From: Massalongia carnosa
Taxonomy: Eukaryota
Reading direction: 5' to 3'
Assembly: GCA_965645245.1 (NCBI GenBank)
Contig: OZ287067.1
Location: 3,596,001 to 3,660,000 of the forward strand
DNA length: 64,000 bases
Under the pieces are notes generated by a model. It ran no database searches, was not told where the DNA came from, and saw only the letters and a program-made list of their open reading frames with translations. The stretch's first letter is position 1. Each line of letters begins with the position of its first letter. This document shows, piece after piece, positions 5,698 to 57,650 of this stretch. Position numbers and translations under genes: made by a program.

Positions 5698-6320
5698 AAT
5701 CGCAAGTCAATTATCACTTAGACCAGTGAAGGTTTTTCTGTCAACCTCAGTCCTTGCTTAAAGGCTTTGAAATGTAGAAACAAAATCTCAATAATGTCAA
5801 CGTACTGACCTTACTTAATGAAAATATTAGGAATAGATGTCAGGACTTGATGTATTATAATTGCTCGTCTCATCTTCAGCTATGTCGTCGATTATGATGC
5901 TCAATTGCTTTACAATTTTAGCGTACTTTATCAAAGGCTCGACAGGCGTAAGCACTGATTGTACGTCTTTGAAAATCTCCATCATTGCATCTACGTAGCT
6001 CAATGAAGTAAGATGCTTATTCATTCAATAATGATTTAAGATCTTGGCAGACTTTTGTTCTGAAGTGCTTACGGAAGCAAGGGCAGGATTCAGAGATCGG
6101 ACATAAGTTGGATAAGCATTCTCTGCTAAGAGGCCCCTCTAGCTGCGGCATATTTGAAGCCTGGAACTCTTGTCATGCGAGCTCTTCACGTCTCACAAAG
6201 GAGTCAACTTTCACCCGAAGCTGATGACTACGCAAAAAACTTTGTTTTGAAAGACGTCAAAAAGTCAATTGATTATTTCATGTTCCTGAATAGTTTCCTA
6301 GAATGACTCCGCAATGTTGA

Positions 6321-7611
6321 CTAGTAATTCCGCCATTGCCTATCCCTCTGTCTGTCTTCTGGGTTAATGTTATGATAAGTATTCTTTATGTTCTGTCAGC
6401 TTGTACATCGCTATTGAAAGGATAGGTGATCCTTACAGTGATACTAGTCCCAGTTATCTTAACCCCTTCTATGGACGTACTATTTGCATGACCCATAATC
6501 ACACCTCGATTGTTATTGATTTTGTCCCTAAAGTTAACATCGCCCATACGAACCGAATGTTTCTGTTGATTTTCAGCTAACTTCAAGCGCGCGAAAGAGA
6601 TGTCAGACCTGGCGATCCTCTCCAGATCCCTTGGATCGACTATCAAGATCCGATATCCATTGAACCAACTTTTGTGAAATTCTCTTGTATCTCTCTCGGT
6701 CTTCATCCTCAAACTTGCACATATCAACATGGTTCGCCTGGATCGACTGTGGATCGATACCAGGCAGTCAAGCCGATTCCTTGGGCACGATAAATCCTAT
6801 CTTCGTCCCTCCCTTGTACATAGCATACTGTTCAAAGAAGCAAGCTACTTCCACAAACTCTCTTGATTCTGAACGATCCCGTGCTTTCAGAAATTTCTGA
6901 AAGGCCTCGTTAACGCTGATGAGCTTTGCCGAACGCTCTTCAAGATCCTTTGTATCCTGCTTATGCGTGGTGCTTATCCAGCCCAGTATCTGTAGAGCCC
7001 TGCTTCCCCATTTTGCTTTTGACGATCCCTCAAAGGGCGTTCCAAGGAAGACGACTCCAATCGTTCTCTCTACGAGGGAAGTGCTAGCAATGTCGGTACC
7101 ATTATGCCTTGACAACGCATTGGCGCACACGAGACCCCCTAGGCTGTGCGAGACGAAAATAATCGGCCGTTCAGCCTGGACATAGACATCCTATTAGCAT
7201 ATTTCTGGTGGAAAGGGTAGGGGTGCGCCGATTCCTACAGTTTTGGTTTTCTCGCGAAGACCGATTAGGCTCTGGAACATTGCAGTCGCGTGATCATCAA
7301 TAGTCAAATGCTCCGGGATGAATTTCGGTCCAACAAACGGATAGAAGTGAGCAAAGTCTGCATTGTACCCAAAAGAAAGGATGCGAGCTGTTGGGCAGGC
7401 TTGAGGTAAGAGATCTTGCGGCCACAACAGCGATCTATCTCGACCCTCCCATGTCCAAGTTTTCACTCTGTCGCCGCCGAGCCCGTGGACGAAGACAATA
7501 CTGTTTGGTCAGTACAAAGCAACCCGGACGAGAAATGACATCTGGTGCGTACTCTATATTCGCCTCTGGAGAATCAAAGAGGGGTTCGCCTAATCCGTAC
7601 GGTTCGGCCAT
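6321..7611 (-). pseudogene. SesB-like alpha/beta-hydrolase (lipase-like) effector with C-terminal candidate amyloid motif; one in-frame TGA
   Basis: Spliced model with introns 7501-7552, 7176-7238, 6563-6608 and probably 6384-6436: MAEPYGL...DIVFVHGLGG...WPQDLLP...RILSFGYNA...RPIIFVSHSLGGLV (nucleophile elbow)...FLGTPFEGS...ACFFEQ...VPKESA*LPG...NHVDMCKF. Premature TGA at 6768-6770. Confidence 0.85.
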
Positions 7612-7821
7612 GCTGGCGTTGTCATCGCAATACTACAGAGGGGTCGTGCTTCAAATTTAGCACTACAGTACTAGGCCAAAAGTCTGCGGCCCCGCACCCC
7701 ACCAACATTTCAATCATTCTATTCAATCAACAATCAACCACGTCACGATTGCTGAAATGTCTTGAAACTTTACATAATGATTACATACATACTAAACACG
7801 AATTCCCCCAAAAATTGATTT

Positions 7822-8367
7822 TTAATATTTAGTATACCATCCTTCCGACGCTATACACGCTTTTATCCTCCTATTCATGCTCTCTATTAACCTCCTCATC
7901 ATTTTCACATCTATCAACGTCCAGGCTTCTTCTAACGCTTTCCAAAGTACCTCAAGAACAGTTTCATCACTGCCGCTCACCAAATCTATGTTCGGGTTGA
8001 CTTGATAGACGAGCTTTTTGAGCACATACCAAACGTGCTCGATAGGATTTAAATCAGATGAATAGGGGGGCCAATCGATGACCTCTATGCCGTTCTCATT
8101 GAACCATTCCATCACCTTTTTAGCCTTATGTATAGGTGCGTTATCCTGCATGATAATGAGGCCCGGTTGCCAAATTCCAAGCAGATTATCGTTCAATAAT
8201 TCCATATATGAGTTCGCCGAGTACCCCATCTTCTTCGCAGCAAATCACGAGCCAATTTGTAAAGATCTGACCTGTCATCTCCCCAAAAAGCTGCCCAGAC
8301 CATGACACTGACTCCTTTGCCTTTGGGGACAGGTTGTATCATCTCTTTATTCCATTTTTCTTTCGGC
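7822..8367 (-). pseudogene. Tc1-like DDE transposase, C-terminal part
   Basis: MQDNAPIH...WPPYSSDLNPIEHVW...GWYTKY. Continues the N-terminal half across the Gypsy TSD. Frameshift near 8280. Confidence 0.9.
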
Positions 8368-8545
8368 AATCTTGTGAGGGATAAAACGAGTTCACTTTCA
8401 ATAGCCTAGTTCTACACCAAAATCTTCAGACGAAGTCTAAAAGCTTTACTCGGGCGGAGTTCTATATAACCCCTGAAAAGTCGGTTCCTCGGCACATTAC
8501 CTAATCGATGCTAGTCTGATGTCAGGTGACCTCAGGACCCTGACA

Positions 8546-11500
8546 CTACCCCTCCTCTGAGACCGCGGCTCCGGACGTCGATGGTTGACTGTTATTCATG
8601 AATAGGACATCCTTTGGGGCGTTGGGTTTTCCTTTATTGTCTGTATGAAATTTTCTGATTTCTTCTTTGGCGCGAATGAAATCAGTCCATGGCTGCCAAG
8701 GTGGGTTTGCGTTCCAGTCATCCCATGAGCCGATATAGGTTGCTTTATACTGAGTGCCGTATTTCTTAGTTTCACGGCAGTCGACGATTTCGAGGACTTC
8801 ATATTCTTCATGAGGACTGGATTCGGCGTCTTCTTGAATCAGTATCGGGGGACCCGGTTCAATAAGTTGACCGGGGAATGGGTTCGTAGGAGCCAGATGA
8901 AGTTTCCATGGATGAAATATGGGTGTGAGCCCCACTCTTTTCAAGTGTTCGGGAATTTCCAATTCATAGGCCTTGTTATCTATGTTTCGGATGATTTTCC
9001 ATGGCCCCGCGTTTTTGGAACTCAGGGAGCGACTCTGCTTGTCGACGGAGAAATCTTTGGTGTTGACATATACCATGTCTCCTATCTTGTAGTCTGGATG
9101 TGGGGCCCGCGACTCATTGGCATATCTCATCTGATCTGCCTGTGCCCAGGTTAGGTGCTCGATAAGCCATTTGGTCATGGCTTCTTGTCGGGCGGTTATT
9201 TTGTCTGCCGACATCAGTTCCGCGCGTCCGGTGACATTTGAGTCAAAAGGCTGAGGCGGCTCCGAGCCACTACGAGGGTGATAACCGTGATCAGCGAAGA
9301 AGGGGGACATTCCGGTTGAAGCGTTCGTATGATTATTGACTGCAAATTCGGCATCTGGTAAGTAGTCCACCCAGTCGTCTTGAGCATGTCTGACGTATGC
9401 TCTCAGGTAGTTCTTCATAACCTTATTCGCATTTTCGGTTTGACCATCTGTTTCTGGATGATGCGCGGAGGACGGTTTCGATTTGACTCCTAATCGCTGA
9501 CAAATTCGCTTCCACAGATGGGCTGTCAATTGCGTCCCGCGATCGTGGACGATGGAGTTTGGCAAGCCGTATGTTGAAAAGACCCGACGTTTGAGGACTT
9601 CTAGTACGTCCTTCGTGCCTATATCCACCATAGGTTCGTACAACCTACGTTTGGTCAATCTGTCCACGATAACCAAGATATTTTCGTACGTCCGGCCCCG
9701 TCTGTGACATTTGGGCAGTTTGACTACAAAGTCCAGAGATAAGTCTGTCCATTTTCTTTGAGGTATGGGTAGTGGGGCTAATAGTCCCTGTTTATGATCG
9801 TTGTACGCCTTGGACCTTCGGCATGTAGAGCAGTTAGTAGCGTATCTTCGACAATCATCCTTCATGGACATCCAGAAATAGTTCTCCAGCATTTTGGCAT
9901 ACATGCCTCGATACCCGGGGTGTCCTTGCATCGGGGGATTATGATGATCCGATAAAAGACGCAGCTTCAGCTTGTCGAAATTCGGAATGAAGAGGCGTGT
10001 TTTGAAGTATAGTCTTTCGTGAAGGACTTCCAAGTCACCCATCACCAGTCTCAGCCCGTTGCTTAGAATTTTATCGGGCAATTTCTTCAGATTTTCAAAC
10101 TTAGCCTTCATGACTTCCTGAATCATTGCGTCTTCTTGATATGCCTCCGCTAAAAGATTTTCTAATAATTCATCAGGCTTTTCTGCATCCGAATCATCAT
10201 TCGAATTGATTGTGAACTCCTCTACCGTCAAGTCCTCTACTTCCTCGTCCCTGATTTGATCGGATGAGTCAGTAGTAATGTTGTCTTCAACCCGTTCTCG
10301 ATTGGCCATGGATCTGGTTGTCACGTACAGCTTCAGGTCCTGTTTCACTTCATCGTCCAGCTGATTTTCTTTTAGCAGCACCTGATATTGATATCTGGTG
10401 CGATCATCCTCCGCGTCCATCGGCAGATCTTGCTCTCTTCTGGTGAGGGCGTCCGGTTTGCCCCCTTGCTTGCCTGGTCTATACATAATGCGAAAATTAT
10501 ATTCCGCCAGCATCTCAGCCCAACGCACTTGACGGCGATTTAGTTGTTTCAAAGTCATGAAGGTCTCCAGATTCTTATGATCTGAGTAGACCTTTGTTGA
10601 TTGCTCCACTCCCGCTAGCTCCGGTCTCCAGATGACGAAACTTTCTACGATGGCTAGGAGTTCTTTATCGTAGATCTCATAATTGCATTCGGCGGGGCTC
10701 ATCTTCTTCGAGAAATAAGCCACGGGTTTCAGAACGCCTTCATGCATCTGAGAGAGTATCCCCGATACTACGAAGTCAGATGCGTCTGTCTCCACCCAGG
10801 TCTCTAGCCTTGGGTCGTAATGAGCAAGAATCGGCGCAGAGGTAAAAGAAATCTTCATGTCTTCGAAAGCTTGCTGACATTCAGTGGTCCACACGAAGTC
10901 TTGATACTTGGTGCGTCTCTTTCCGCCTTTCGTGACATATTGCTCTCCGCGGGTTAGCTCGGTCAGACACTTCACCTTTTCGGAGAATCGCTCAATGAAG
11001 CGACGATAGAAGTTAGCGAATCCAAGAAAGGACTGCACCTCTTTTACTGACGCGGGCGTCTTCCATTCTAGTATGGCCGTCACCTTTTCTGGGTCCATTC
11101 TAACGCCATTCACCCCCACGAACATTCCGAGGTACTTGACTTCGGAGACAGATAATTCACACTTGTCTATGTCCAGTTGAAGTCCTCTTTCTTTCAGACG
11201 ACGAAGTACCTTCAGTACCTGCTCGATGTGCTCCGTTTCTGTTTCACTGAACACCAGTACGTCGTCCAGATAGGCGGTGACGAAATAATCTAAGTATTCT
11301 CGCAGGGAGTTATTGATATAGCTCTGAAGTGTTGATGGAGCGTTGCATAGTCCGAAGGGCATCACAAGATATTCAAATTGACCGTATCGAGTATTGAACG
11401 CTGTGAGCCACTCTTGTCCCTCTTTAATCCTCATCCTATTGAATGCATGAATGACGTCCAATTTAGTAAACCACTTTGCTTTGGCGAGTTTCGCCAATGT

Positions 11501-12617
11501 CTCGCTGATCAATGGAATGGGGTATCGACTTTTCTCCGTGATATTATTCAGATCTCGATAATCTACGCAAAAGCGAAGACCCCCGCCTGGTTTCCTGACC
11601 AATAGTACCGGCGCGGCCGCCTTTGACGAGCTCGGACGAATAAACCCTTTTGCTAAGTGCTCATCTAGATATTTTCTTACCGCGGTCAATTCCTGTTCGG
11701 ACATGGGCCGATAATTCTTGATGAACGGGGGCTCGATCCCGGGCATCAAATTGATTTCGTGATCCTCTTTTCGATGAGGTGCCAACTCGTCTGCCTTAGC
11801 CCTCATGAAGACTTCAATCTCGCCATGATAGGCCTCGGGTACTCGTTTTTTCAATTCTTCCAGAGTATATTCGACTTTGTCTTTCATGAACTTCTCATGA
11901 TCGTCGCTGGTGACTGCGTTGATACTTGAAGCAGTCAGAAGCTTCTTCTCGTACCTATCTAACTTCTTGTTGAGCTTTTCCCTCGGATAGAAACAGTAAG
12001 TCTGATGACCCGATCTTCGAAGAAGTTTCATAAATTGCTTCGGGGTGAGGGACTGAATATCGAAATTTTCAAAGGCCTCGTTCTTTGCTGAGGCAGTCGT
12101 TTCCTTCTCCAAGATTGTGGATTCAAATTTTGAGACTGAATGAGATCGAGGTGCGCATCCCTTACTGACGCACCGATTGGAGAACGTCATGGTGCGTTCA
12201 ACCCAATCAATGTGAGGGTTATGCTCCTGCAGCCATCCATCACCGATGATCAAGGTATGATTACCTATGTCGGCCAGATAGCAGAATAACTTTTCCTCAT
12301 GATCTCCGATTCTGACGGGAACGATAACGGCCTTATCAATGATTTGATGGACTTTTCCATCCCCAAGTTCCAGTCTGACCCTGTCTCTTTTTTTTTAGTC
12401 TAATGGTCTCTAGTTTTCTTTTGCGCGCAAAGGATTCATGAAGAAATTGAGCTTCACTTCCGTTATCGATCATCAACTGATTTTCATTAGAGGCTATACT
12501 ACATCTAAATAAAAGATGCTTGCCCGGAACGAGATGATCGACAGAAAGAACAGATGCTCTAACAACCCTTAATGAAAATTCTCGACATTCCTGATGGCGA
12601 CTATCATCAGGAATCAT
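8546..12617 (-). CDS. pol: Gypsy Pol (protease, RT, RNase H, integrase, chromodomain)
   Basis: LMIDNGSE protease motif, YLDD RT, ETDASD RNase H, HHCC/DDE integrase, C-terminal EYEVLEIVD..YKATY..W chromodomain. One frameshift in a poly-A run near 12390. Confidence 0.93.
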
Positions 12618-14206
12618 TCTTTTTCCGAGTCCTCGGACTCGGATGAGTCTTCTCGAATGGCGACTCTACTGAGATTCACTGCTTGCCTAATGCAACAGGG
12701 GTCTCGGCCCCTATGCCCTGATCCTCTGCACGACCAACATCGGCCCTGTCGTGACAGAGTCTCTCGTTCCCCGTCCTCCAACTTGGGCGGGTGAAGCGTC
12801 CCCTCGTACCAAGCTCCTACCCATCCTTCCGGTTTGGTCGAGACCTGTCCGAATTTCGAGTTCGGGTTGGCGGAGATGGCGGAGTTGGTCGTAGTCGCTT
12901 TTGGTTTGACTGTGATCGAGGTACTGGAGGTGGCGGTCGTGGTTTTGTTTAAACCACGACCGACGGAAGAAGAAGGAGAAGTCGTCGTTTTCGCGGGCTT
13001 CTGAGATTCCGACTTCGCGTACTTCTGATTCATCTCCTTTCTTCCCTGTTCGATTTTTCTGGCTTCATGCAAGAGGGTTTCTAGACTGATAAAGTCCCGT
13101 CCCAATAGAGACAGCGCGATGTTCGGCCACAGGGTGTCCTTGAACGTCTCAATTCTCTCATCCGCGGGGGTTTTTGCACGTTGCCAGAGTTTGAACATTC
13201 GATGATAGTATTCAGTCACCGTTTCATCTTTGTTCATGCTTATTTCTTTCAATTCCTTCTTCGCGTCCTTTGTCAAATATGCTATCCCGAGATAGCTCTC
13301 AATTTCCTTGAAGAACGTATTCAAAGAGAGAGTGGGACCGGCATCCACTACCCAGGTGTGTATGGCGTCGAAAATGGGATCCTTCATCTGCGATAAGGCG
13401 TAGTCGATTTTCAACTCCTCACTAGTGTACATTGGGGAGTCGGTTATGATTTTTCTTTCCACCGTAAACGCCCATGCACTATAGGCGTCTGAGTTGGAAC
13501 CGTCGAGGGCCTCCTTCGGGTTGGTGCCTTTGGGTCGATAATTGCTTAAGGGGGCAGCGACGGCGGATTGATCTTCAGTTTGACCAGTCGATGAGGTCGA
13601 CGTCTGAGTAGCTTCGCGAGCTAGACGTTTCATCTCTGATATTTCACGAATGAGGTCCGAGTTTTCCGCTTTGACCTTCTGAGTCTCCAATTTTTCAGCC
13701 GCGATATCCTCCTCAAATACTAGTCTCTCGTGATCCCAGCTCTTTATCATTCGGGTCCATTCTGCCTGTAGACCTTTTAGATCTTTGTTTCTTTTTTTCA
13801 AGTCCTGATATTTCTCGATCAAGACCTCATGTTGTAGGAGCGTGCCGGCTAGAACAGTGTACCATATGTCGCCGTCTCCCTTTAGGACGAGGGCCCTTCT
13901 CAACTCTTCTCGATTGGCCACCTTGATGATCATAGCTGATTTCGACGGATTGCTTTCCGTCAGACTTCGATAAATGGCATAATTGCTTATGTCGATTTTC
14001 GGTTCTGAGGTCGGGGCCTCGATCTTCGGTTCCCTGCCTTTGTCTTTGTTTGTCGGCAAAACAGTGTCATTTCCCACCTCTTCGTCGGCGGGTTCATATT
14101 CGCCTGGTATGCTCTGTGTCGATTGTCGCGACATGGAGCGAGCTCTAGTGTTGAAGGCCGGCCCCGAGGGAGCGACATCTCTGCTGGATGATTCTAATGA
14201 GTTCAT
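12614..14206 (-). CDS. gag: Gypsy Gag
   Basis: 530-aa ORF upstream of pol with coiled coil, capsid-like core and CWSCRGSGH..C zinc knuckle. Confidence 0.9.
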   Translation of the reverse strand: MNSLESSSRDVAPSGPAFNTRARSMSRQSTQSIPGEYEPADEEVGNDTVLPTNKDKGREPKIEAPTSEPKIDISNYAIYRSLTESNPSKSAMIIKVANREELRRALVLKGDGDIWYTVLAGTLLQHEVLIEKYQDLKKRNKDLKGLQAEWTRMIKSWDHERLVFEEDIAAEKLETQKVKAENSDLIREISEMKRLAREATQTSTSSTGQTEDQSAVAAPLSNYRPKGTNPKEALDGSNSDAYSAWAFTVERKIITDSPMYTSEELKIDYALSQMKDPIFDAIHTWVVDAGPTLSLNTFFKEIESYLGIAYLTKDAKKELKEISMNKDETVTEYYHRMFKLWQRAKTPADERIETFKDTLWPNIALSLLGRDFISLETLLHEARKIEQGRKEMNQKYAKSESQKPAKTTTSPSSSVGRGLNKTTTATSSTSITVKPKATTTNSAISANPNSKFGQVSTKPEGWVGAWYEGTLHPPKLEDGERETLSRQGRCWSCRGSGHRGRDPCCIRQAVNLSRVAIREDSSESEDSEKE

Positions 14207-14345
14207 GTTTTCTGATTAGCCTAATGATTCTGATTGTAGGTCTGAAGATTGTGTGAGGGATAAAACGAGTTCAATTTCAATAGCCTAGTTCTACACCAAA
14301 ATCTTCAGACGAAGTCTAAAAGCTTTACTCGGGCGGAGTTCTATA

Positions 14346-17300
14346 CGAGAAGACTCGGGACAGTCCCCCCCCCACCGTCCCCCCAGCGAAAATCATTGCA
14401 ACTTAGGACTAGCTACAAGCCACCTCCCCATACTAAATATGTACACGTCCACCATCTTTCCGCAAGCTTCCTCTAGCTGATTTAGCTTAGCCCCGCATTC
14501 TGAAAAATCCTCATCTATTCATACTACTACTATTACTACTACTCCTACCACTCATTGCGATGATCTCAATTCTGAAAATGCATCACTCAATTGCGAAACA
14601 TTATCCTTTCTAGGCTTCATAGTCTTAGCAACCTTTCTTGCAGCTGCGTTTTTCCTCTCCTCAGCCCTTGCTTGTTTGGCCGCTTGGTCGGCCCTCTGCT
14701 GAGACTCCAACTCCAACTGAGCCTTCGATTTTTTGGCTACCACACCCCGTGACCCTCGTGTTGTTGTTGCAGACGATGTGGATGGTAGCTGGCTAGCGCG
14801 GATGTTTTTTTGACTGAGGCTATAAAGGGAAGGAGCTTTTGGAGAGGGAACCGTTTGGGAAAGAGCCTTTTGGCTATGTTTCGCCAGCACTTCATCAATA
14901 TCTTCAAATGAATCGGAAGAAGATGCCGGGGATGGAGGGATAAAATCATCATTCTCATTCAGAGAGAGTGGAGGATCAGGGGTAGGCTGAGTTGCTATAT
15001 ATTGCAGGGCATCGTCGTCAGATACGATGATAGCATCTCCGGAATCTATACCGAATATTAGCCGCGCTACATCGATCGATTTGCTGATATCGTGGGTTTT
15101 TTATCATCAATCATACCCTTGTCTTCACCGCCTGCCCGCAATTCATCCTCATGCCTTCTTCTCCTCCCTTCTTCAATCGAGTCCTTACGTTTAGCACGTC
15201 GCTGCTTAGCTTCATGTGCCTCAGCTGCCTCACGGCCAGTGTAAGCCCGCCGGCGATTCCCACTCTTTTTATACATGAGGTTGTCCTTCGGTCGGATTTC
15301 GTCGGGGAAAGTTGTAGGGATAAGTGGCCTCGCCAGCTCCTTATCCTGCCATTTTTTATTGAAAATAGCAGTGAATTTGGCGAATTCACGAGCGTATCCC
15401 TCCCTTCTATGCACATTTTCTATTGATTTATGAAAATCAATTGATTGATGTGCGGCCGCATGCAGCAAATCAACACCCCCGCGACGAAATCTATCCCCAG
15501 TATTATTGTCAACTGCCTTCTCGATTTCCTCCTCCGGCTCAGATTCTTGACTTTGTTGAGCATTCCCCCCCTCATCCGCCTCCTCATCCTGCTCTTCTGT
15601 GGTCTTCCTGTGAGCTGCTCTCCGAAACATCTCAGCGAAATTTATGGTGGGGTCGAAAACCATGCTCCACGAGACCACAAAAGGCGGGCCATCGAAAAAC
15701 CAGCGGGGATGAATGAGGGAGATAGGTATGGGGATAACATCAATGACGCAACGATACAACCAGCATCTGCACGGAAGACCGTATCGTGGAGGCAAATCAC
15801 AATCATACATACAATCCTCACCGGTTGGTTCGATTAATGCAGTCCCTTCAACTCCAAAAGAAACCTGTTGATTGAAATCTTCGGCTAAAATTTTAGCTGC
15901 ATCCAACTCTCTAGATATGAGGTCAATAGCATGATGAGTTATTAAACCTATAAGGTCTTTGAACGCACTTCTATCCATTAGCCGGGGGTTGTTGATTCGT
16001 TGATGATTGGTTGATATTTCGTAGTCAACCTGAACCCTTTGCACTGTTTCGCATATTTTCCGCACCGAGTCCTTAATAGGTGTATGCCTATTTGTCACAT
16101 TCTTTACCAACGGATGCAAACCTTCCACCCTTTGTGTGCTATGTGCACCTAAATTAGGGAACTTTCTGGTGTATGCGGAACCAAACTGACACTCCTGACG
16201 TTGATAATAGCTAGTAAAATACTCCTGGAAATAGGAGTGAGTTAGCCCTTATTAACGTTTTTTGATGGCTTCATACCTTTTCTGAAGCATGAAGCTTCAA
16301 TATCAACGCGTTTCTCTTCTCATCCAGCTGTTCAACGGTAGGAGTTTTAATCCACTCCCATATCAATTCATGCAGTTCTTTCCGTACTTCTAAAGGATAT
16401 GAACCCGCCCTGATCAGGCGTTTCTTGATTGCCTCCGCTGCGTGCCACGTGCATAATTGCAACACACAATCAGGGTCGGTTTCGTGTATTGATTGGGCGA
16501 CTTGCCATGCAACGGTCATTGCTGCATCCGGGTTTATTTCCTTAGCCCGTTTTTTATGCATCGCTGCAGTCAATCCAGCGGCGAAGTCTCCGAGGATGAC
16601 CCTAGGACCAGGACATGTATCATGAAAAAAGAGATCTTTCATACAATCAAATAGAAACGTAAAGCACTCAGCCGATTCAGAAGTTATATAACAATAGGCC
16701 GCGGGGAAAGTCTGATTTGTGTTGGTGATGCCAACCAATACCGATAGAGGTAAGTTCAACTGATTTGTATTGAACGTAGCATCCGTTTCTATCAAAATCC
16801 ACTGACGAATCGTCTAGTCAGTCGGATCTGTTCAGAGTTACAGAAAAAGAAATGTTCAACAACACGTCTTCGGGGAGTATTTTTTTCAACGAGATATTTC
16901 TCCAAAGTCCGTACATGAAACCCTTCTTCTTCTAGAAATCCAAGTGCATAGATCAACTCTTCTTCAGGTGTATCTTTGCCCTGGGATCGAGCCAGGTTGT
17001 AATAGTCCTTCTTCGAAAGGCGCAGGCCAGTAATTCCCAAAACGCGAGATGCTTGACCGTATCTAGTTGATGCATCACGGAGACTTTTTGCTTGATCTAG
17101 GGCAGTTGCTCGATCGAGGTCTTGGCTACGATGCTCTTTGAAACCGAAGGGGTCTGTAGCCATCTCGTGATTGTGATCAGGATTGGTGATGATTAATCTC
17201 CACGATTCGTCTTTGTTTTGCTTCAGTCTTAGTCGATATTTGCACTCGTTGAACGAGACCTTCGTGTTTTTTCGTACGCGGTCCTTCTCCTCTAGCTTTC

Positions 17301-17765
17301 TAGTGTTTCTTTCTCTTTTGTGATGACGGGTGCAATCTAGTATAACGAGATGATTCTTCTTATCATTAGTCTCTGTGACCAATGCAAAGCCTTGAGTAAA
17401 GGCATAATTCTGAAGGCGGGTTTTTCCCTCCTCCCAGGAGATAAAGATTTCACTCTCACTCGGAGGAAGACGATGAGAAGACGGTAAACTCGCTATAGCC
17501 CTTTGCAAACGTGCATCCAGGGACGTTGATGTGAGGGCCATAGCAAAGAAAAAGATTAGGGAGAGAAGAAGTGCGGTCTACCTATCATAGTAATAAATTT
17601 ATACAGAGGGTTGGCTGCCTATACCTATAATATTATTAATAGAGACGGTGAACGAGGTATATGCACCTAATTATTTAGTATGGGGAGGTGGCTTGTAGCT
17701 AGTCCTAATTTGGAATGATTTTCGCTGGGGGGACGGTGGGGGGGGGACTGTCCCGAGTCTTCTCG
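14346..17765 (-). mobile_element. Mutator-like (MULE) DNA transposon inserted in the Gypsy 5' LTR
   Basis: ~95-bp TIRs starting CGAGAAGACTCGGGACAGTCCC. 9-bp TSD AGTTCTATA at 14337-45 and 17766-74. Confidence 0.93.
14552..17541 (-). pseudogene. MULE transposase (FAR1-like N-terminus, DDE core, SWIM-like Cys motif)
   Basis: C..HNH FAR1-type domain, ETDATFNTN, GDFAAG, QLCTWH, STQRVEG and YGLPCRC. Frameshift at ~16793, intron ~16228-16275. Confidence 0.85.
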
Positions 17766-17858
17766 AGTTCTATATAACCCCTGAAAAGTCGGTTCCTCGG
17801 CACATTACCTAATCGATGCTAGTCTGATGTCAGGTGACCTCAGGACCCTGACAAATCT

Positions 17859-18392
17859 GAACACCCACTGACGCTGTTTTCCTGACCCCTTTTCCACCGA
17901 GCACTCATCTGACCATATAACTCTTGACCACTGCTCAAAAGTCCACTCACGCCGCAGCAAGCACCAATCCAATCGTTTCTTGGCCACCTCAGGCGTCAAT
18001 AAAGGTCGTTTTTTAACCACCCAGTTGGTTAAACCATACAGTTTGAGTGCCCGATAAATAGTCGTACGACTGCAGCCGAGCCCCACTTCTAGTTTGATTT
18101 GTGCATAAGTGATTCGTGGATTGATTCGTGCATGCTTGATGGTATAACGTCGATCGCGTTCTGACAGCACTTCAGGCCGTCCAGAACGTGATTTAGACAC
18201 GCCGTCGTTGCGAATTGAGTGCTTCTGAATGGTGCTCTGCACGGTCGATTTAGTGAAATTAAGAGTCTTCCCAATCTCGGTCGGTGTGTGCCCCAACGCC
18301 TGGGCCCCAACAATCATACCACGTTGATATGGCATCAATTCAGTGTTACGAGGCCGATTACCACTTATGGGGGTCAAAGAAGCACGAAGCAT
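17859..18392 (-). pseudogene. Tc1-like transposase, N-terminal part
   Basis: Paired-like HTHs with RSGRP, KRPLL and VIWSDEC. Cut at the Gypsy TSD. Confidence 0.9.
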
Positions 18393-18779
18393 GGTGAAAT
18401 GATGAGGTGGAAGATGGGGGGTTGATGAGTTGAAAACGCGAAATCACGAAAATTACGGGTTGGGCCGCAGACTTTTGGCACGGGACTGTATAACTTATGC
18501 GAGATAATTGTAATAACGCCTGCATGGAGAGACCAGGCTCTTCAGCACGTGCATAGCCTTGGCTCTATTAGCCATCTATCCCACATGACGGCGGGGGGCC
18601 TCCATCGGCGAGTCCGTGCCTATATTTATACTTAGAGATGAACAGTGCTTTTAGAAAGTCTTGGGCGTCGAGTTTCTGGCCGAGCCTAGGTGCGGTCCTG
18701 AGCACGGTAAAGGTAATGGTTTTCAAGTCTTATTCAATATAGCTCCGAGCTCTAATGTCTACAATCTTCCGACGCAGCA

Positions 18780-21508
18780 ATGGCCGGTAACACGCCAGTA
18801 GTCTCTACAGGCACGAAGGATTTTGGCACGATTTCTGGCAACCAAGGCGTTGTGATCGGTGACGTCTCAGGCTATGCGAAAGTGATTGGTTTGCGTCCTG
18901 TTCACATCGATATCGATCTTATGCTAAATCCTGATTAGGCTCTCAGACAAACAATATTGTTCAATATCCAGGCAAGTCGCCATTCGCAATGATATAGCGT
19001 CCTGTGAGCCAAGGCTGATAGCATTCTGCGTTGGTAGAAAGACCCGATACCCCACCAAGCCCATCATCTGCTGTTCCTTTCCGCCGCGACCCTGATTTCG
19101 TCGATCGCGGAACGCTACTTGATCAGATCCACGAAAAGTGCTCGGCGCCAGCATCAAGGGTAGCGCTTGTCGGCCTAGGCGGCGTTGGGTAAGCCAAAGG
19201 GCCTCAGGCTAGTTCTAATAGCTTACTTTCGCAAAGAAAGTCGCAGCTTGCCATCGAGTACTGCTATCGAATCAGAGAGCAGTTGCCGACGACGTGGGTG
19301 TTCTGGATAGACGCTAGTAATGCAGCCCGTATCGAGCAAGGTTATCGGGATGTTGCAGAGCAAGTCAAGATTCGTGGCAGGGAGGACCCAAAGGCGGACA
19401 TATTCCGGCTAGTTGACAAGTGGTTACGCGACGAGAAGAACGGAAAGTGGGCTCTGGTCCTCGACAATGCCGACGAAGCTACTGTGCTTTTCGAAACTCT
19501 TGTCACGGGCCAGAAGGCGCAGGCCAGCGGGTCTAGCGGCGGGCCCACGCAATCACTGTTAGCATATCTACCTCAGAGTCGAAACGGCTCGATTCTCATC
19601 ACCTCCCGGACTAAAAGCGTGGCATTGCGGCTAGCAGAAGAAAGCGACATAATAGCGGTTGAGCCGATGGACGATACACATGCGCTAACGCTCCTTGAAA
19701 AGAAGCTGGGAGAACAGATGGACAGAGATGACACTGCTGAGCTAGCAGCAGCACTCGAATTCATGCCGCTTGCCATCGTTCAAGCGGCCGCATACATTCG
19801 ACAAAGAGTACCAAGATATTCTGTTCGACAGTACATAAAAGAGTTCTATAAAAATGATAAAAGAAAGACCAGTCTGTTGAATCACGAAGCGGGACATCTT
19901 CGCAGGGACCTGGAGGCTAAAAATTCAATCATTATAACCTGGCAAATATCGTTTGATCATATTCAACAGATCAAGCCTTCGGCAGCTAATCTGCTGTCGC
20001 TTATGAGCTTTTTCGATCGACAGGGAATTCCTGAGGCATTACTCAAGACACAAAACGAGGCAGGAAATGAAAATACGAGAGAAAATGCTGGAAATGACGA
20101 AGATGATGACCACGAAGACGATAGCGATAAGAATACCGTATCCGATTCCAGCGTCGACGAGTTTGAAGCCGACATACTTGTCTTGAGAAACTTCTCGTTC
20201 ATCACCATCAGCATGAATGAAACAACCTTTGAGATGCACGGGCTAGTGCAGCTAGCGATCAGAAAGTGGCTAGAAGCATCCAATCAGCTCGAAAGATGGA
20301 AGCAGCAGTACATCAAGAATCTCAGTATAGTATTTCCGACGGGAAATTACGAGAATTGGACAAAGTGTCAAGCGCTTTTTCCTCACGCAAAGTCGGCAGA
20401 AGCGCAGGAGCCAGCTGTCGAAAGCTCATTACAAGATTGGGCCTTGATACTATATCACGCTGCATGGTATGCGTGGGAGAAAGGGAGTTACGCTGAAGCA
20501 GCGACAATGGCCCTAAAAGCAACAAGAACCAGGCAAAAAGCGTTTGGTCCAGAGGATGAAGAGACATTGAATAGTATGGCTATGCTAGCATCGGCATACG
20601 CGGGACAAGGACGATGGACGAAGGCCGAAGAGCTGGAGGTGCAAGTGATGGAGACGAGTGCGAGGGTGCTAGGGGCGGAGCATCCAAATACGCTGCCTAG
20701 CATGGCCAATCTTGCGTCGACGTACAGGGATCAAAGACGATGGACGGAGGCCGAAGAGCTGGAGGTGCAAGTGATGGAGACAAGTACGAGGGTGCTAGGG
20801 GCGGAGCATCCTTCCACGCTGACTAGCATGGCCAATCTTGCGTCGACGTATTGGAATCAAGGACGATGGATGGAGGCCGAAGAGCTGGATGTGCAAGTGA
20901 TGGAGACGAGAAAGAGGGTGCTAGGGGCGGAGCATCCAGACACGCTGACTAGCATGGCCAATCTTGCGTCGACGTACAGGGATCAAGGACGATGGACGGA
21001 GGCCGAAGAGCTGCAGGTGCAATAGATAGAGACGAGTGCGAGGGTGCTAGGGGCGGAGCATCCTTCCACGCTAACTAGCATGGCCAATCTTTAGTTGACG
21101 TATTGGAATCAAGGACGATGGACGGAGGCCGAAGAGCTGCAGGTGCAAGAGATAGAGACGAGTGCGAGGGTGCTAGGGGCGGAGCATCCTTCCACGCTGA
21201 CTAGCATGGCTAATCTTGCGTCGACGTATTGGAACCAAGGACGATGGATGGAGGCCGAAGAGCTGGATGTGCAAGTGATGGAGACGAGAAAGAGGGTGCT
21301 AGGGGCGGAGCATCCAGACACGCTGACCAGCATGAATAACCTTGCACTCACGTGGAAGTCTCAAGACCGCAATGATGAGGCTCTCTCACTGCTAAAGGAA
21401 TGTTGTCAGCTACGAAAACACAAGCTGGGTCCTCAACATCCTGATACAGAGTCTTCCCTTAAGCATCTCAATGAGTGGCAGATGGAGAGTTTATCATTGG
21501 AGTCTTAA
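18780..21508 (+). CDS. NLR: N-terminal candidate amyloid motif + NB-ARC-type NTPase + TPR array; two TAG stops in one TPR unit (truncated or pseudogene)
   Basis: Spliced model with introns 18889-18938, 18972-19037 (GC donor) and 19189-19236: MAGNTPVVSTGTKDFGTISGNQGVVIGDVSGYAKVIGSQTNNIVQYPERPDTPP..VPFRRDPDFVDR..GLGGVGKSQLA (Walker A), LVLDNAD (Walker B), MPLAIVQAA, MHGLVQ, then TPRs. TAG at 21023-25 and 21092-94. Confidence 0.9.
20540..21460 (+). repeat. 126-bp tandem TPR-coding repeats (~7 units, high internal identity)
   Basis: Recurrent GTGCTAGGGGCGGAGCATCC...AGCATGGCCAATCTTGCGTCGACGTA at 126-bp period. Confidence 0.95.
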
Positions 21509-21675: not shown

Positions 21676-22128
21676 CTAGGTTTTACACTCGCCCGCGTTA
21701 GCAGAGAGGCCTAAGCGGTGCGCTCTAACTGTTCCAAATAGCAGGAAGTCGTCAAACCTTCTACCTTGAGCATTCACCTCCGCACCCTTGTCCAGCAACA
21801 TCTCCAAAACCTTCTCGTGGCCTAGTTCTGCTGCCCAAATTAACGCTGTCCGCCAGTGCTGATCTTGTGCCTCCAGATCTACCAATTTAGCATCCTCGAT
21901 CATTCTCAGGATGACTTCGCGTTCATTGAACGCTGCAAGCCTGTTGTCATTCATGACCGGCTGATCTTCATATCGTGATAAAGCCCGCCACAGTAAGGGA
22001 AATCATAGTCGAGGTTAATTATCTTCTCCTCGGCTTAGTTCACGGTCCCTTGACATATCTGCATCTTTCAACCCGAAAGTAGCATAAGTAGCATTTCGGA
22101 AATGGGCCGTCTGATGTTCAGAACCTGA
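21676..22128 (-). pseudogene. Ankyrin-repeat gene relic truncated by a Copia LTR
   Basis: DLEAQDQHWRTALIWAAELGHEKVLEMLLDKGAEVNAQG. Confidence 0.7.
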
Positions 22129-25100
22129 TGTTATCAAAAGGCAGTATAGTAATATATAGTCAATAGAGGATAGAACGCTTGCTTTTGTTTTATATAGTTG
22201 GAATAGCTAGATTTATAGACAATGTACGGTATGCTAGTATTAGACTAGCGATACGTCTAGCCATTAGCGTGCGCCATACTCGTGCGGTAGAAGGTGAGTG
22301 CGGCTGAAATGAAGTAGCCTGATTTGTACATTCTAACACTCCCACTCAGGCACTGAAATAGCACTCCCAGATGATAAAGAGAAAATCAATAACTCCCACA
22401 TACTCCAGTATAATATCATGCTTCCTAGTGGATCACCTGCAGGTGAGTTAGTGTACTCCGCAGGCTAATGCTGCTGGTGATGTACCAAAACACCCCCGCA
22501 GGCTCAGCTGTGGGTGATACTTTTTTTTGGGGGGGTTAAGGTCGGATTTTTACGACAAAGGGCTTCTGGTTTACTTTAAGCCTAAAGCCCTTCGAAAGAC
22601 AACAAATTTATCGTTTGGTAGGGCCTTAATTAGGCCGACAGCCACCTGCTCTTCGGTAGGAACATAGCAAAATTCCACTGATTTGTCTTCGATCTTCTCT
22701 CTTTGGTAGTGCCATTGGATGTCGATATGCTTGGTCCGCGCGTGTGCCTGGGGGTTTTGGCCAAAGCCATTGCTCCTTGATTGTCGCAGTGAATGATGAT
22801 AGCGTTTAGGGCGAAAGATATAGGCAAGTAGGCAAGGGCTACAGAGGTGCTCTGGGTTTGGATAGAGTTATTCCCAAGGACTTGAGGTGTTGAGAGTTGG
22901 TCGAGAAGACTAGACAACCAGGCGGCTTCCTTGGTGGCTTGGGTCTGACCCATGTACTCGACTTCGCATGAAGATAGGGCTACGGTCGGTTGTCGTTTGG
23001 AAGACCAGCTAATAGCGCCACTACCAACATTAAACACGAAGCCAGAGGTAGTAGACCTTCGGGTATGATGATCTCCGGCCCAATCCGCGTCAGTGTAACA
23101 GTTCAAGGCTTATAGGCGATCTTTGTATGTTAACTGCAACGGAAGAGTGCCCTTGATGTATCGAAAGATGCGTTTGACTGCCTTCCAGTGCGTGTCGGTC
23201 GGGTTCGAGGCATAGCGGCTGACCACCGGTACGATGTAGGCTAAGTCAAGTCTGGTGCCTAGCATAGCATACATGAGAGAGCCCACCGCTGATTGGTAGC
23301 GGAGGCGAGAGTCATCTGTGGCCTGATGGCCCTCTGGTGCAGCCTCCAGTCACCCATCCATCGGGGTAGCCACGGGTTAAGTGTCCCACATGCCATGGTC
23401 GCGTAGTACTTTTTCCAGATAGGCCTGCCGAGCAAGGCGAAGAATCCTGTTGGCCCGATCCCGAGTTATCGTCATGCCCAGGTAGTAATTGACAGGGCCT
23501 AAATTAACCATCGAGAACTCGTCGCTCAGCAGTTTCTTGACACGTTGTATCTCGGAAGAAGAAGGGCCAGTGATGATTAAATCATCGACATAAATGGCTA
23601 CGATAACCCCTTTTTTAACGAAAACGCTAAGGTCGGCATTGACTGGAACGAAGTCATGAGACTTAAAAAAAATAGTGATCGTTTCATACGAGATTCTAGA
23701 CGACTGTTTCAGGCCATAAAGAGCTTTCTTCAACTTGCAAACTCTCGTTGACCCGTCATCCAGACCGGTTGGTTGCTCCACGTAGATTTCCTCGTCCACC
23801 CTTCCGTACAAGAAGGCTGTTTTTACGTCCATTTGGTGAATTTCCCAGTCATTGGCTGCAGCGATAGCGAAGATGGCTATATAGCTCATTGGCTTCACTA
23901 CTGAAGCAAAAGTCTCATTGTAGTCAATGCCTTCACGTTGTTCAAAGCCTCTAACCACCCATCGAGTCTTGTAACGAAGAATCTCGCCAGCCGGGCCTCG
24001 TTTGCTTTTATAAACCCATTTGCCTCGCCGGGCTTTGCGGTCCGAGGGCAGGGAGGTGAGGATCCAGGTATCATTTTCGTTGATAGAGTCGATTTCTTCC
24101 TGCATTGCCCTTCGCCAATCCTTTTCCTCCCGACTGTCTACGGCCTGTTTATAGGATTTAGGCTTGTATGGCTCCGGGTCATTGGCTCGAGCAAGAAGGG
24201 CCAAAAAAGCTAGTGGGTCAGGCGAGGGGGCACGAAGTTCTGGGTGCTTAGAGAGAATATCTGCCTGGGACCGAGGCTCAATGGGCCGTTGGTTTGCCAA
24301 TGCCTCTTGTCTTGTCTAGCGTTTGGTGGGAGAGGTCCAGTGGGATTTGATTCTATGGATTCATGAGCGTCGACTAAGTCCGTATGAGGGGCGTCCGTTT
24401 GATGGGTAATTTTTTTGCTTTCTCGTGGGCAGTCCTGACTGTCCAACATGTAGGGCTCTTTTAGTTTGAGAGAATGATAAGGAAGGAGGAGTTGGGGGAT
24501 TGTTATCTATCCACTGAACATTGGAATAACGCATGACCGCGCCCCGTGGATTTATCATTCGATAGATGTGATCGCCTTCGTATCCTACTACAGTACATTT
24601 GGTGGCTCGTTCCTGAAATTTCTTCTATCCGGTGGAGGGCTTGCGATTTTGCGCATAGCCAGTCTGTCCTATTATCTACCCTTAGATGTCCTAGTTCTGG
24701 TAGGCTGCCGGTGTGAGACTCGTATGGGGTGATGGAGCGTCCCGCAGTTGGTTGTCGATTTCGTAGGTAGTTGGCGGTGAGAACCATTTCAGCCCAATAT
24801 TTGATGTCGAGTTTAGCGCCTTCTCGCATGGTGCTGGCTAACTTGTGAAGCGTTTGACCTAGGCGCTCGGCTGTCCCGTTCATGGGTGGATTTCCCGGTA
24901 CCGTAGGCTCCCACTGAATGCCATGCTCGTTTATGAAATCCTCGAAGTCTTTGGAGTCATACTCACCCCCGTAGTCCGATCGCAAGCGCTTAATTCGTTT
25001 GTCCCCATATTCGTTTTGCTTCTTGTAGTTTTTAAAGCCTTGAAGGACTCCGCTTTTGACGCGCAGTAAAGTGACATGAGACCATTTATCGAAATCGCAA

Positions 25101-26305
25101 AGAAAAGTTACCAAATATTTGGCGCCATTCAAGGCTTCTGGGAAAGGTCCTGGACATCGCTGTGAGTTAAGTCCAGCGGGTGCTTGCCTGGTTGGATGGG
25201 GGCCCGATATGGTTCTACTTGGGACTGAGCGATGGCGCACGGAGGACAGGCGTCTTGGGGCGGGGGCTTGGTGAGGTCCATTCCTTTTGACATGCCAGCG
25301 AGCTTGAGAATGTTTTGATTTCCAAGATAGCCTAAACGAGCGTGCTACATTTTTATCGCCTCGCTATTAATTGCAGCGAGAGCGAGGGCGGCTTCAGAGA
25401 CGTTCCACATGTTCAGGATATACAGATTGTTGTCCTGGCGGCGAGCAGTGATACCATAGTTCCCGATTTCAATTCCCTCTGGTACGATCTTCAGGGGACA
25501 TCCATCTCGTTGTAATTGTCCTTGGGAAATGAGATTTAGGCCTCCGTCCGGAACGTATAACACATCGAAAAGAGGGAACTCCCGAAGACCCTCGTTACCG
25601 GCACACCGCAACATGATGTTACCTATTCCTTTGGGAATTAATACTCCTCCAATGCCTTGAATTGGTGGGCAATCGGATGTCTTGAATGAGGTGAAGATGG
25701 AGCGATCGTGGGTAATATGTTGCCTAGTTCCAGAGTCACAGATCCAGTGCTTAGATATTTTGGTTATATCCGCGGTGGCCATGTAGGCGCAGAAGGCTCC
25801 TTTGGTTGAGTCATTATTTCCGGTTGGCTTTTGACTTTGACCTTGACTTTTGGAACTCCTACGACGCTTATAGGACTTACGCCGTGAGTCTTGGTTAACG
25901 AGGTGTGGATATTTTTCATGACACTCGCTCTCTCTACGTGATAGTCCTTTCGGCAGTGGTTGCAGTACTTGATGGTCTTGGTGATGATTCGAGAATGGGC
26001 TGTTCCAGGTTGAGCTCCTGCTTGGGTTTGAGCGTTTGAAGCAGCTGCCTTTGCGGTTACGGTCTTATCGTTGGACTTGCTTGGGTTGGTCACCGTGTTT
26101 TGGAAATGCTGCTTAGCCTGACTTAATGTGTGCTTGGATTCACCCATTTCATTGAAAGGATCATGATCCTGAGCGTATCGTTCGAAATAGCTGTTGTATT
26201 CGAAGCCTAAATTGGTATGAAAGCGATAGATAAGCCAGTTTTCGTCCAGGCTTAGCTTGCTTGAGAAGATGCGAAGCTTATTGACAGTGGCGCGAAATTG
26301 GGTAA
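22129..26305 (-). mobile_element. Degenerate Ty1/Copia retrotransposon, 5'-truncated
   Basis: 3' LTR 22129-22338 (TG..CA) next to a GAGTGGGAG PPT. Frameshifted RNase H (YTDADWAG), RT (YVDD), integrase, protease (WICDSG) and gag fragments. Confidence 0.9.
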
Positions 26306-26953
26306 CAGGGCTGCTGCAATCCGATAGGATACACCCGTTTGCAAAATGGTGTGCCGAACTTTGAACCCCGAAACTGCGCGGTAAAAAAAAAAAAATAAGC
26401 GACAGAATTGGACCACACACCAGAATTTGGTGCAGTAGCTAATAGCCCTACTCCCCTTCACACTGCCCTTTGCAGTCTATAGGATAGTATGGTTAATGAT
26501 ATCCTTTTGATTGTCGTTTGTATGAACTTTCAACGTAGTTATTCCAGTCATCATGCCTCGAAAACAGCCTCCTAAACAGCCTTCAAAACAGCCTTCAAAA
26601 CAGCCCCCCAAACAGCCCTCCAAACAATCATGAAAACGGGCATCTACTACTGAATTACCTAGAAACTCAGCACCTTCATTTAAACAAAGGCTTAGAATCA
26701 ATCCTCCTAGATCATCATCACCAGTTTTAAATGCCCGTATTCCTGATCTTCCATCACGTCCACCTTTACCATCTCCTCCAGCTTCTCCTTCGGCTTCGCC
26801 TTTACCTCCTCATCGTTTCCTCCCCCCCGAGCCAAGGAATGTTCGTCCGACTCGCAGTAGTGCGCCTTCTCCTTGTCTTTCTGAGCTATCTAGTGCTCCT
26901 GAACCTGAGCCTGAGCCTGAGCCCGAGCCTGTTTGTTTACTCTGATTTACAAA
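26306..26953 (+). mobile_element. 5' end of a probable DNA transposon (hAT-like?) with a Pro/Lys/Gln-rich ORF start
   Basis: Abruptly replaces Copia gag with CAGGGCTGCTGCAATCC. The ATG at ~26553 gives MPRKQPPKQPSKQPSKQPPKQPSKQS* (12-bp repeats). No second TIR seen. Confidence 0.35.
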
Positions 26954-33506: not shown

Positions 33507-33886
33507 AAGGGTGCGGAAACGTATTCCGCACGTGGGCGATGCAGCCCGCCAAGATGATCCTAATGTGGCTCGGGCTCCTAGAATCGGATACTTTACGTCT
33601 CGCACTACTTCAATTCTTTCCTTTGTATCTAACTGCGTCTAAGTATTTGCTTTCTGAATGAACCTTGCATATTGGAATCGAATCATAGCAATATTTACTA
33701 GCTTATATCACCATTTCCGACATTGAACCCAACCGACGAAATAAGACGTTATATCAATCCCGTAGTACAATAGCATATGCTACGGGCGCAACCGCTTTTA
33801 GTCGAACACTATAGACAAAGGTTTGCGAAACCCAATATGAATATGACTGACTATCTCCGTGATTAGCAAGTGTGCTATCTATCAGT

Positions 33887-57095: not shown

Positions 57096-57650
57096 GGTAG
57101 CGATCTGACATCTGCTCTTGTGCGGACAGGAGGCGCTTGGTCTGTAGATCATCAGCTCGAACTCACGCGCAAATCGTAGGATACCGGCAGTCACCGATCA
57201 CAACTTACAATCACAACCCGCAAAAGACGGTCAGTCATTCATGTACCATAGTGTAGTATGTGAACTATGCCTGACCTACATCCCGAAGCCTGAGCACTGC
57301 TCCGCATCAGCGACGGGGTCGTCGTCAGAGGCGCCGGATTCAACGGAGATGACAGGGCCCGGTTATTCTGACTGGTAGAGCGTGAAGGAGATCTCTCAAA
57401 CACCCCTTTATGATATAGGTAGCTATAAGCTCGTTCTCATGATGGCTACGGAAAACGAAATCTAGCCTTATGCCTTCTGCCTTAGAACTCAGCCCCGCCA
57501 TCACATCCCCAAGCTCAAGCTTTACCCTATCTAGCTAGCGCAGACACCGCCTCTATCGAGTGTTCCGCCTAATGGAATACAACAACGTCTCTCTTCCCCA
57601 TCATTTATCGCTTTTTTTGTGTCCAGGATCCAAGTACACCGTCGTGACTC

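Follow-up and report, generated by a model that had tools for sequence, protein, structure and literature searches.

Closest to the locus described here are fungal two-gene modules in which a NOD-like receptor (NLR) and its effector carry a common amyloid signalling motif. In the PP module of Chaetomium globosum (the NB-ARC-TPR receptor PNT1, the SBP lipase and HELLP) this motif is placed at the N-terminus of the receptor and at the C-terminus of a SesB-like lipase encoded by an adjacent gene. Its consensus is given as FxGx(x)NxGLQLxGxNxGxL (PMC3321046), and G-phi-Q-phi-G is described as common to PP, RHIM and BASS3 (bioRxiv 2020.01.06.895854). Other modules of this kind bear the sigma, HRAM (HET-s/NWD2) and PUASM motifs. 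A 2025 ASMscan paper lists five fungal amyloid signalling motif families, and a 2022 survey (PMC9815663) presents the fungal motifs as less diverse than the bacterial ones. Here we analyse a 64,000-nucleotide stretch of Massalongia carnosa (contig OZ287067.1, positions 3,596,001 to 3,660,000; hereafter the window), which is fungal, transposon-rich DNA, and in it a peptide shared by an NLR gene and a SesB-like hydrolase gene.

We consider it rather probable that this peptide is the amyloid signalling motif of a two-gene NLR/effector module, constituting a family of its own that is related to PP and RHIM and resides mainly on one clade of SesB-like hydrolases. As judged from sequence comparison, the motif is terminal on both partners, the genes are linked head-to-head, the two copies co-vary from pair to pair, the motif is modular across NB-ARC and NACHT receptors, and the catalytic Ser and His are intact in the hydrolase family.

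Receptor and hydrolase genes of the window

The segment 18780-18971 covers exon 1, the intron and exon 2 of a four-exon NLR gene on the plus strand, the encoded peptide being MAGNTPVVSTGTKDFGTISGNQGVVIGDVSGYAKVIG-SQTNNIVQYP. The partner is a five-exon SesB-like alpha/beta hydrolase gene on the minus strand, starting at 7611 and named after the source name of its homologue P0041. Exon models of both genes are based on splice signals and homologues, without RNA; when four contig sets were aligned to the copy L008, introns were covered and zero splice joints were seen. The features are as follows.

18780..18888, plus strand: NLR exon 1, receptor-side copy of the motif; the same exon break occurs in metagenomic locus L111, and the spliced form matches annotated P0056, P0114 and P0145
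18939..18971, plus strand: NLR exon 2, end of the motif (SQTNN...), followed by a GC-AG intron (donor GT in copy L033)
19038..19188, plus strand: NLR exon 3, proline linker and start of the P-loop; the linker matches homologues
19237..21508, plus strand: NLR exon 4, NB-ARC, DUF7779 and TPR repeats of 42 amino acids (aa), by Pfam matches
7611-7553, 7500-7239 and 7175-6609, minus strand: hydrolase exons 1-3, fold taken from the model of homologue P0002
6437..6562, minus strand: hydrolase exon 4, effector-side copy of the motif, 60.7 bits on a profile from other hydrolases
6321..6392, minus strand: probable last hydrolase exon (NIKNTYH...), placed by its match to the ending of homologue P0003
7666..18488, no strand assigned: insertion parting the pair, a terminal inverted repeat (TIR) element with TA duplication, ca. 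10.8 kb, absent from other copies
8373-8545, 14252-14345 and 17765-17853, inside 7666-18488: long terminal repeat (LTR) pieces of a nested LTR element
14346-17764, inside 7666-18488: second, nested TIR element

The initial annotation had proposed F-G-x-I-x-x-N-x-G-V-V-I-G-D as a core of both peptides. It is literal in the NLR, whereas the hydrolase (6562-6437) reads F-R-D-K-I-N-N-N-R-G-V-I-M-G-H, so the claimed core is not literally shared and the common part is reduced to I-x-x-N-x-G-V-[VI]-x-G ... K-[VI]-x-G. The following segments, VSGYAKVIG in the NLR and IEGVKITG in the hydrolase, are both present as it had stated. Among 30 NLR copies of this genome, the position of the first V in GVVIG is mostly occupied by A (25 copies), with V in 3 and T in 2, and the central V is kept in 30/30.

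The window pair is dead, as both genes carry in-frame stops, which are absent from the initial annotation. TAG codons at about 21023 and 21092 truncate the TPR array of the NLR, and the hydrolase is interrupted by a TGA (6770-6768) ahead of its invariant His and motif; this TGA is private, with a sense codon at that site in 19 of the 19 other copies examined. Within the family, S118, E222 and H256 are invariant in 31/31 aligned hydrolase homologues, with HS[LM]GG around the nucleophile Ser. The AlphaFold2 model of P0002 comprises a hydrolase core with matches to lipases and esterases, followed by a low-confidence tail, and an alpha/beta hydrolase fold with Ser and His is accordingly predicted; Pfam matches of the hydrolases to DUF676/Abhydrolase are mostly weak.

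NLR and hydrolase are arranged head-to-head and are parted here by nested transposons. Other copies in the same genome join window position 7665 to 18489, the distance from ATG to ATG being 299-345 bp in all seven measured. As the 10.8-kb spacer is missing from these copies, the pair is normally adjacent. From the features of their open reading frames (ORFs), we take the inserted elements to be of the Tc1/mariner, Gypsy and MULE classes.

Three further features adjoin the genes. Just downstream of the probable hydrolase stop, in another frame, lies a motif-like stretch (..SQHCGVILGNYSG; 6281-6358, minus strand), kept in most copies and perhaps a relic duplication or an alternative exon. An ankyrin-like fragment (21676-22002, minus strand) directly follows the NLR, and an element that we presume to be Copia-like is located at 22571-26438; in other copies both belong to the duplicated arm described below.

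A motif family on hydrolase tails

With hydrolase exon 3 as the query, 47 proteins were recovered among 466 candidates, and 31 of them were aligned, selected by visual inspection so that each had a recognisable tail and redundancy stayed low. Their tails follow the consensus V/I-x-x-G-D-V-x-(Y/F)-x3-I-x-N-N-x-G-V-V-x-G-x4-T-A-x-D-(G/A)-x-R-I-x-G-S, in which G389 is invariant. Once six longer or fused matches had been left out, a tail of ca. 45 aa was found on 34 of the 41 hydrolase homologues scored, at 46 bits or more (31 used for training and 3 held out). Five tails fell below this value, besides two sigma-bearing SesB proteins; one of the five fails because its motif sits further upstream. 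Tail-bearing hydrolases come from four classes of ascomycetes, Dothideo-, Eurotio-, Sordario- and Leotiomycetes, which were assigned by source names. The close homologues P0023, P0036, P0038 and P0039 have other G/N-rich tails, scoring on neither the new profile nor PP, which are possibly further motif types.

The likeness of receptor and effector is clear at the profile level. On a profile made from the 31 non-window hydrolase tails, the window NLR N-terminus obtained 16.1 bits, a score reached by 1 of 2000 shuffles, and this effector-only profile ranked it second of 122 NLR N-termini, behind a Dendryphion NLR. A search with a joint profile gave 56 matches at E<=0.001 among 1.84 billion representatives: 48 effector-side (many of them lone exon fragments, and two resembling copies from this genome or species), 4 receptor-side, and 4 unrelated repeat proteins that were set aside.

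The motif stands at the N-terminus of the NB-ARC-TPR NLRs P0056, P0114 and P0145 and of the NACHT-ANK NLR P0213, and a PNP_UDP-like protein fragment, P0218, ends in it, thereby adding a second class of effector and perhaps a connection to PF01048_015. Being present on NB-ARC and NACHT receptors, and on hydrolase and PNP_UDP-like effectors, the motif is therefore modular. Among the best 120 of 2127 NLR homologues considered, many of which are fragments without an N-terminus, 34 begin with a PP-type motif, three (from Lobaria, Lindgomyces and Dendryphion) with the full new motif and one (Patellaria) with a short form of it. A word-based search with the P0056 N-terminus returned only P0056 itself among 29 candidates. 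Lindgomyces ingoldianus, a freshwater saprotroph (KAF2468400.1 and KAF2476197.1), and Dendryphion each encode both partners, at accessions that are far apart and on contigs of unequal length, so that adjacency is not established.

Independent neighbouring pairs

A metagenome scan gave 80 loci, of which seven had a tail of at least 22 bits and an eighth (L112) was recognised via its NLR. Apart from L113, which has no upstream DNA, each tail was scored against every six-frame upstream segment of its locus. At 5 of the 7 loci the upstream segment that matched the hydrolase tail best was the 5' end of a head-to-head gene; the score was reached by 9 (L111), 2 (L112), 6 (L117), 0 (L119) and 0 (L118) of 300 shuffles. 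Four of the five partner genes are of NLR type: L112 has a NACHT, L117 an NB-ARC, L119 a weak NACHT-type start, and L111 an exon 1 like that of the window. The idea of a conserved motif at the N-terminus of an NLR and the C-terminus of its effector, put forward from the window alone, is thus borne out by further pairs.

The variants differ between loci and match within them (e.g. in L119, ISLGNVKQGDNVLNYGIVAGHVV with LRLGDVDNTGDTVASPNYGSRVEGHVV). The cognate assignment of the five pairs ranks 1 of 120 permutations, two of the receptor segments in this test having first been chosen by eye. Similarity within a cluster was taken as evidence of co-evolution for sigma (PMC3321046), and the present neighbours, with the same motif at the NLR N-terminus and the effector C-terminus, likewise co-vary. 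It is hardly credible that two ends of low complexity, rich in G, N and V, resemble each other by mere chance in a decayed locus: although both window genes are broken and the direct comparison of the pair gives a p of only about 0.01-0.03, the independent head-to-head pairs with matching variants and the profile-level match largely refute it.

The head-to-head partner in L118 (1551-4770, minus strand) begins with the cognate motif, which is followed by a helical and then a proline-rich region. ESM Atlas gave only leads below 0.9 for it, and it is a possible non-NLR initiator.

Relationship to described motifs

The new motif shares with PP the placement on receptor and effector, the adjacency of the genes, the NB-ARC-TPR receptor, the SesB partner and the N-x-G-phi-X-phi-G-x3-G spacing (N-x-G ... 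G ... G), and the closest NLR homologues of the window gene carry PP. Unlike PP, it has V or I at the centre, no second N and two extra strands, being ca. 45 aa long versus 17-18 for PP, and its effector-side loop is 4 residues longer. The initial annotation had based its contrast with PP on V/I in the Q position. This is correct for both window peptides, but the motif is closer to PP than was claimed, considering the common spacing and a Q retained in 3/31 tails. These three tails keep G-phi-Q-phi-G (as G-V-Q-x-G), a sequence absent from both window peptides, which makes a common origin of the new motif and PP plausible.

The motif failed the tests for the PP core and for PP profiles. The core NxGxQxGxN was found in 0/31 tails and in neither window peptide. 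On a PP profile made from 34 N-termini, the window peptides scored 1.5 and 1.1 bits against 22.7-63.8 in leave-one-out scoring, i.e. at shuffle level (184 and 211 of 2000). In Pfam the window peptides had no match to any family, including Ses_B (PF17046), NACHT_sigma (PF17106) and HET-s, while the controls were positive (Ses_B on P0060/P0061, NACHT_sigma on P0042/P0046).

That the peptide is nevertheless a divergent variant of PP, or of PF01048_015, NLR39 or NLR34, falling within published profiles and hence no more than an additional member of a known family, is in our view unlikely. Such a variant would explain the PP spacing, identical with that of the consensus in PMC3321046, the place of the window NLR among PP-bearing receptors (34 of the 120 listed homologues), the G-phi-Q-phi-G of three tails, and the score of up to 8.7 bits that PP N-termini reach on the effector-tail profile; the PNP_UDP-like carrier P0218 recalls PF01048_015, compared by description only. 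It is opposed by the missing central Q and second N, the lack of a Ses_B match, the shuffle-level PP scores and the much greater length. According to PMC9815663, PF01048_015 occurs on PNP_UDP proteins only and measures 23-26 aa, and among the entries for NLR34, NLR39 and NLR40 that were compared (30 of 51 places) are NACHT or unannotated NODs, none of them NB-ARC.

With the sigma module of Nectria haematococca (HET-eN/SesA/SesB) the new one has in common a SesB effector, a tail of ca. 40 aa, co-evolution within the cluster and mixed NOD types. The three-fold sigma repeats GxGxQF (A) and GGTQN (B) are absent from the motif sequence, and the sigma-bearing SesB homologues P0042 and P0046 obtain -1.0 and 0.5 bits with the new profile.

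The receptor-to-effector logic is also that of HRAM (HET-s/NWD2), for which G19, hydrophobic residues at 5, 8, 10, 16 and 18, R/K15 and N/Q/H3 are the characteristic positions (PMC4518210). The initial annotation had seen a HET-s-type pattern in the second half of the peptide and, possibly, a two-rung beta-solenoid. Neither suggestion was supported: only 3/7 HRAM positions agree in each window peptide, no effector tail exceeds 5/7, and within the family profile the strongest self-similarity lies between segments 1 and 2 instead of in the proposed second repeat, and is weak (17-70/1000 column shuffles). We therefore regard an HRAM-like two-rung solenoid as very improbable. The three short hydrophobic strands, all of which terminate in G, and the slight self-similarity of segments 1 and 2 would suit it; against it, Pfam gives no HET-s match, and receptor and effector align over about equal length, whereas HRAM has two repeats in the effector and one in the NLR. 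The effector, too, is a lipase-type enzyme in place of HeLo.

A single motif on an enzymatic effector, with one PNP_UDP-like carrier here, recalls PUASM and PF01048_015 (PMC9815663). The PUASM (NLR32) pattern FxGxGxQxxGxGxF occurs in 0/31 tails and in neither window peptide.

The view of the initial annotation that the motif fits no named family thus appears right for the families that could be tested (PP, sigma, HRAM and PUASM), NLR34/39/40 and PF01048_015 having been compared by description only. We found no description of the motif in the literature covered, which excludes subscription-only papers such as the 2016 PNAS paper on PP, and the homologue accessions are missing from the searchable parts of the PMC9815663 supplement. 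A PDB sequence search with the motif profile yielded 0 matches, ESM Atlas gave no usable match for the hydrolase tail, and the AlphaFold2 monomer of the motif is a low-confidence model (pLDDT 65, pTM 0.26) with no fold match at Z>=2. Taken together, the comparisons argue for a real NLR-effector motif that seems to work like the PP and sigma modules yet fails their membership tests.

Amplification and decay of the pair

A genome search located 34 copies of the receptor motif on 12 contigs; for the effector motif it gave 29 matches, at 28 places. Twelve copies are arranged as six inverted pairs, 54-66 kb apart; on contig C12 the inverted arms are ca. 11 kb long and 97-98.5% identical, and C12 and C16 are collinear over ca. 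75 kb. Within 300 kb of a contig end lie 21 of the 33 located receptor copies, versus about 10 expected if uniform, the copies not being independent.

Intact NLRs (5' exons intact and exon 4 open to its natural end) were present at 22 of the 31 loci examined, with 2 more nearly complete, as compared with 4 intact hydrolases out of 28. Exon 4 of the intact NLRs encodes 630 to 1722 aa, with lengths differing by multiples of 42, so that the TPR number varies about sevenfold. Variation within the TPRs falls on a few repeat positions (212 repeats, several invariant positions being fixed by the search pattern). Among the broken hydrolases, the inverted-pair copies share one frameshift and the others carry about ten different lesions. 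The excess of receptor-side over effector-side copies resembles the many-receptor/few-effector signalling of NLR12 and the basidiomycete motifs, as presented in PMC9815663; unlike in those cases, the ratio can here be seen to result from the amplification of entire pairs together with the decay of enzyme copies. The same survey raises the speculation that one effector may serve many NLRs, and PMC13449251 links NLRs of high internal conservation to transposons.

Duplicated blocks of ca. 75 kb were observed on C1, C7, C12, C13, C16 and C17 (e.g. C12:1847984-1922689), each ca. 11-kb arm bearing an NLR-hydrolase pair with the NLR outward. Their interior presumably holds nonribosomal peptide synthetase fragments, a second SesB-like/NB-ARC/TPR gene, a tyrosine-recombinase-like fragment and many transposable elements. 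Such a block may conceivably be a giant transposon bounded by long TIRs, but the arms end in nested transposable-element pieces and C12 and C17 share flanking sequence past the arm, so that no termini could be assigned.

Just upstream of the window, at C1:3591354 and C1:3581176, lies an inverted second pair with an intact hydrolase, a truncated NLR and an insertion between them. The window contains two other genes with near-identical repeats. One is NLR-like (33863-38629, plus strand), with a weak DUF7708 N-terminus, a NACHT-like middle and a long ankyrin-like array. The other is a WD40-like repeat ORF within 54678-59305, where this ORF and kinase-like fragments, all on the minus strand, face a weak kinase-like gene (58049-59305) in head-to-head orientation.

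Proposed mechanism

Following the model of NWD2/HET-S and PNT1/SBP/HELLP, ligand binding by the TPR array would oligomerise the NLR, and the clustered N-termini would nucleate an amyloid of the beta-arch type, the core of which is G-phi-V-phi-G. This amyloid would template the hydrolase tail, and the templated tail would switch on a lipase-type cell-death activity. The peptide thus probably lets the receptor turn the enzyme on via amyloid templating. In this genome, the many intact receptors with differing TPR arrays would probably signal in trans to the few intact hydrolases.

Several observations weigh against an amyloid signalling module. Direct similarity of the window pair is modest, its score being reached by 54/2000 shuffles unspliced and 38/5000 spliced; the window hydrolase scores its own NLR at 33 versus 34 for two foreign NLRs; and in the intact copy L008, 26/300 shuffles reach the pair score. 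Loci L114 (237/300 shuffles) and L121 (157/300) have no partner in ca. 1 kb upstream, Pfam finds no NLR domain in the L118 partner, and the alignment rests on tails selected by eye. As 12 of the broken hydrolases carry one shared lesion, the contrast of 22/31 with 4/28 does not represent independent events. The ratio of nonsynonymous to synonymous differences (pN/pS) among genome copies, calculated from small counts with pseudogenes included, is 0.91 and 1.05 for the motif exons versus 0.24-0.41 for the folded domains. Finally, amyloid is not shown here, and its formation, templating, enzyme activation and signalling in trans are inferred by analogy.

A conserved homotypic interaction peptide could couple receptor and enzyme with no amyloid involved. 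The low Q content, the charged residues of the effector copy and the L118 partner without NLR domains speak for it; we hold it to be improbable, as the terminal position, the gene pairing, the G/N-rich short strands and the co-variation are as in known amyloid modules.

Returning to the amyloid signalling module, an extended version of it may be suggested, albeit tentatively and with the odds somewhat against it. The motif might represent a further family dedicated to SesB-like lipases, bridging the Q-containing cores of PP/RHIM and Q-less ones and split into pair-specific variants that do not cross-seed. Firing by non-NLR proteins might be possible (L118), and about two dozen TPR-diversified receptors, amplified near chromosome ends, might be wired in trans to about four live enzymes.

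Significance

A widespread motif family on lipase effectors would extend the known fungal set. Natural Q and non-Q versions of a RHIM-like core would offer material for tests of seeding specificity, and the pairs may be useful for studying the activation of SesB-like enzymes, which is poorly known so far. The amplified locus of M. carnosa, in turn, would make the speculation that many NLRs act on one effector in trans directly testable.
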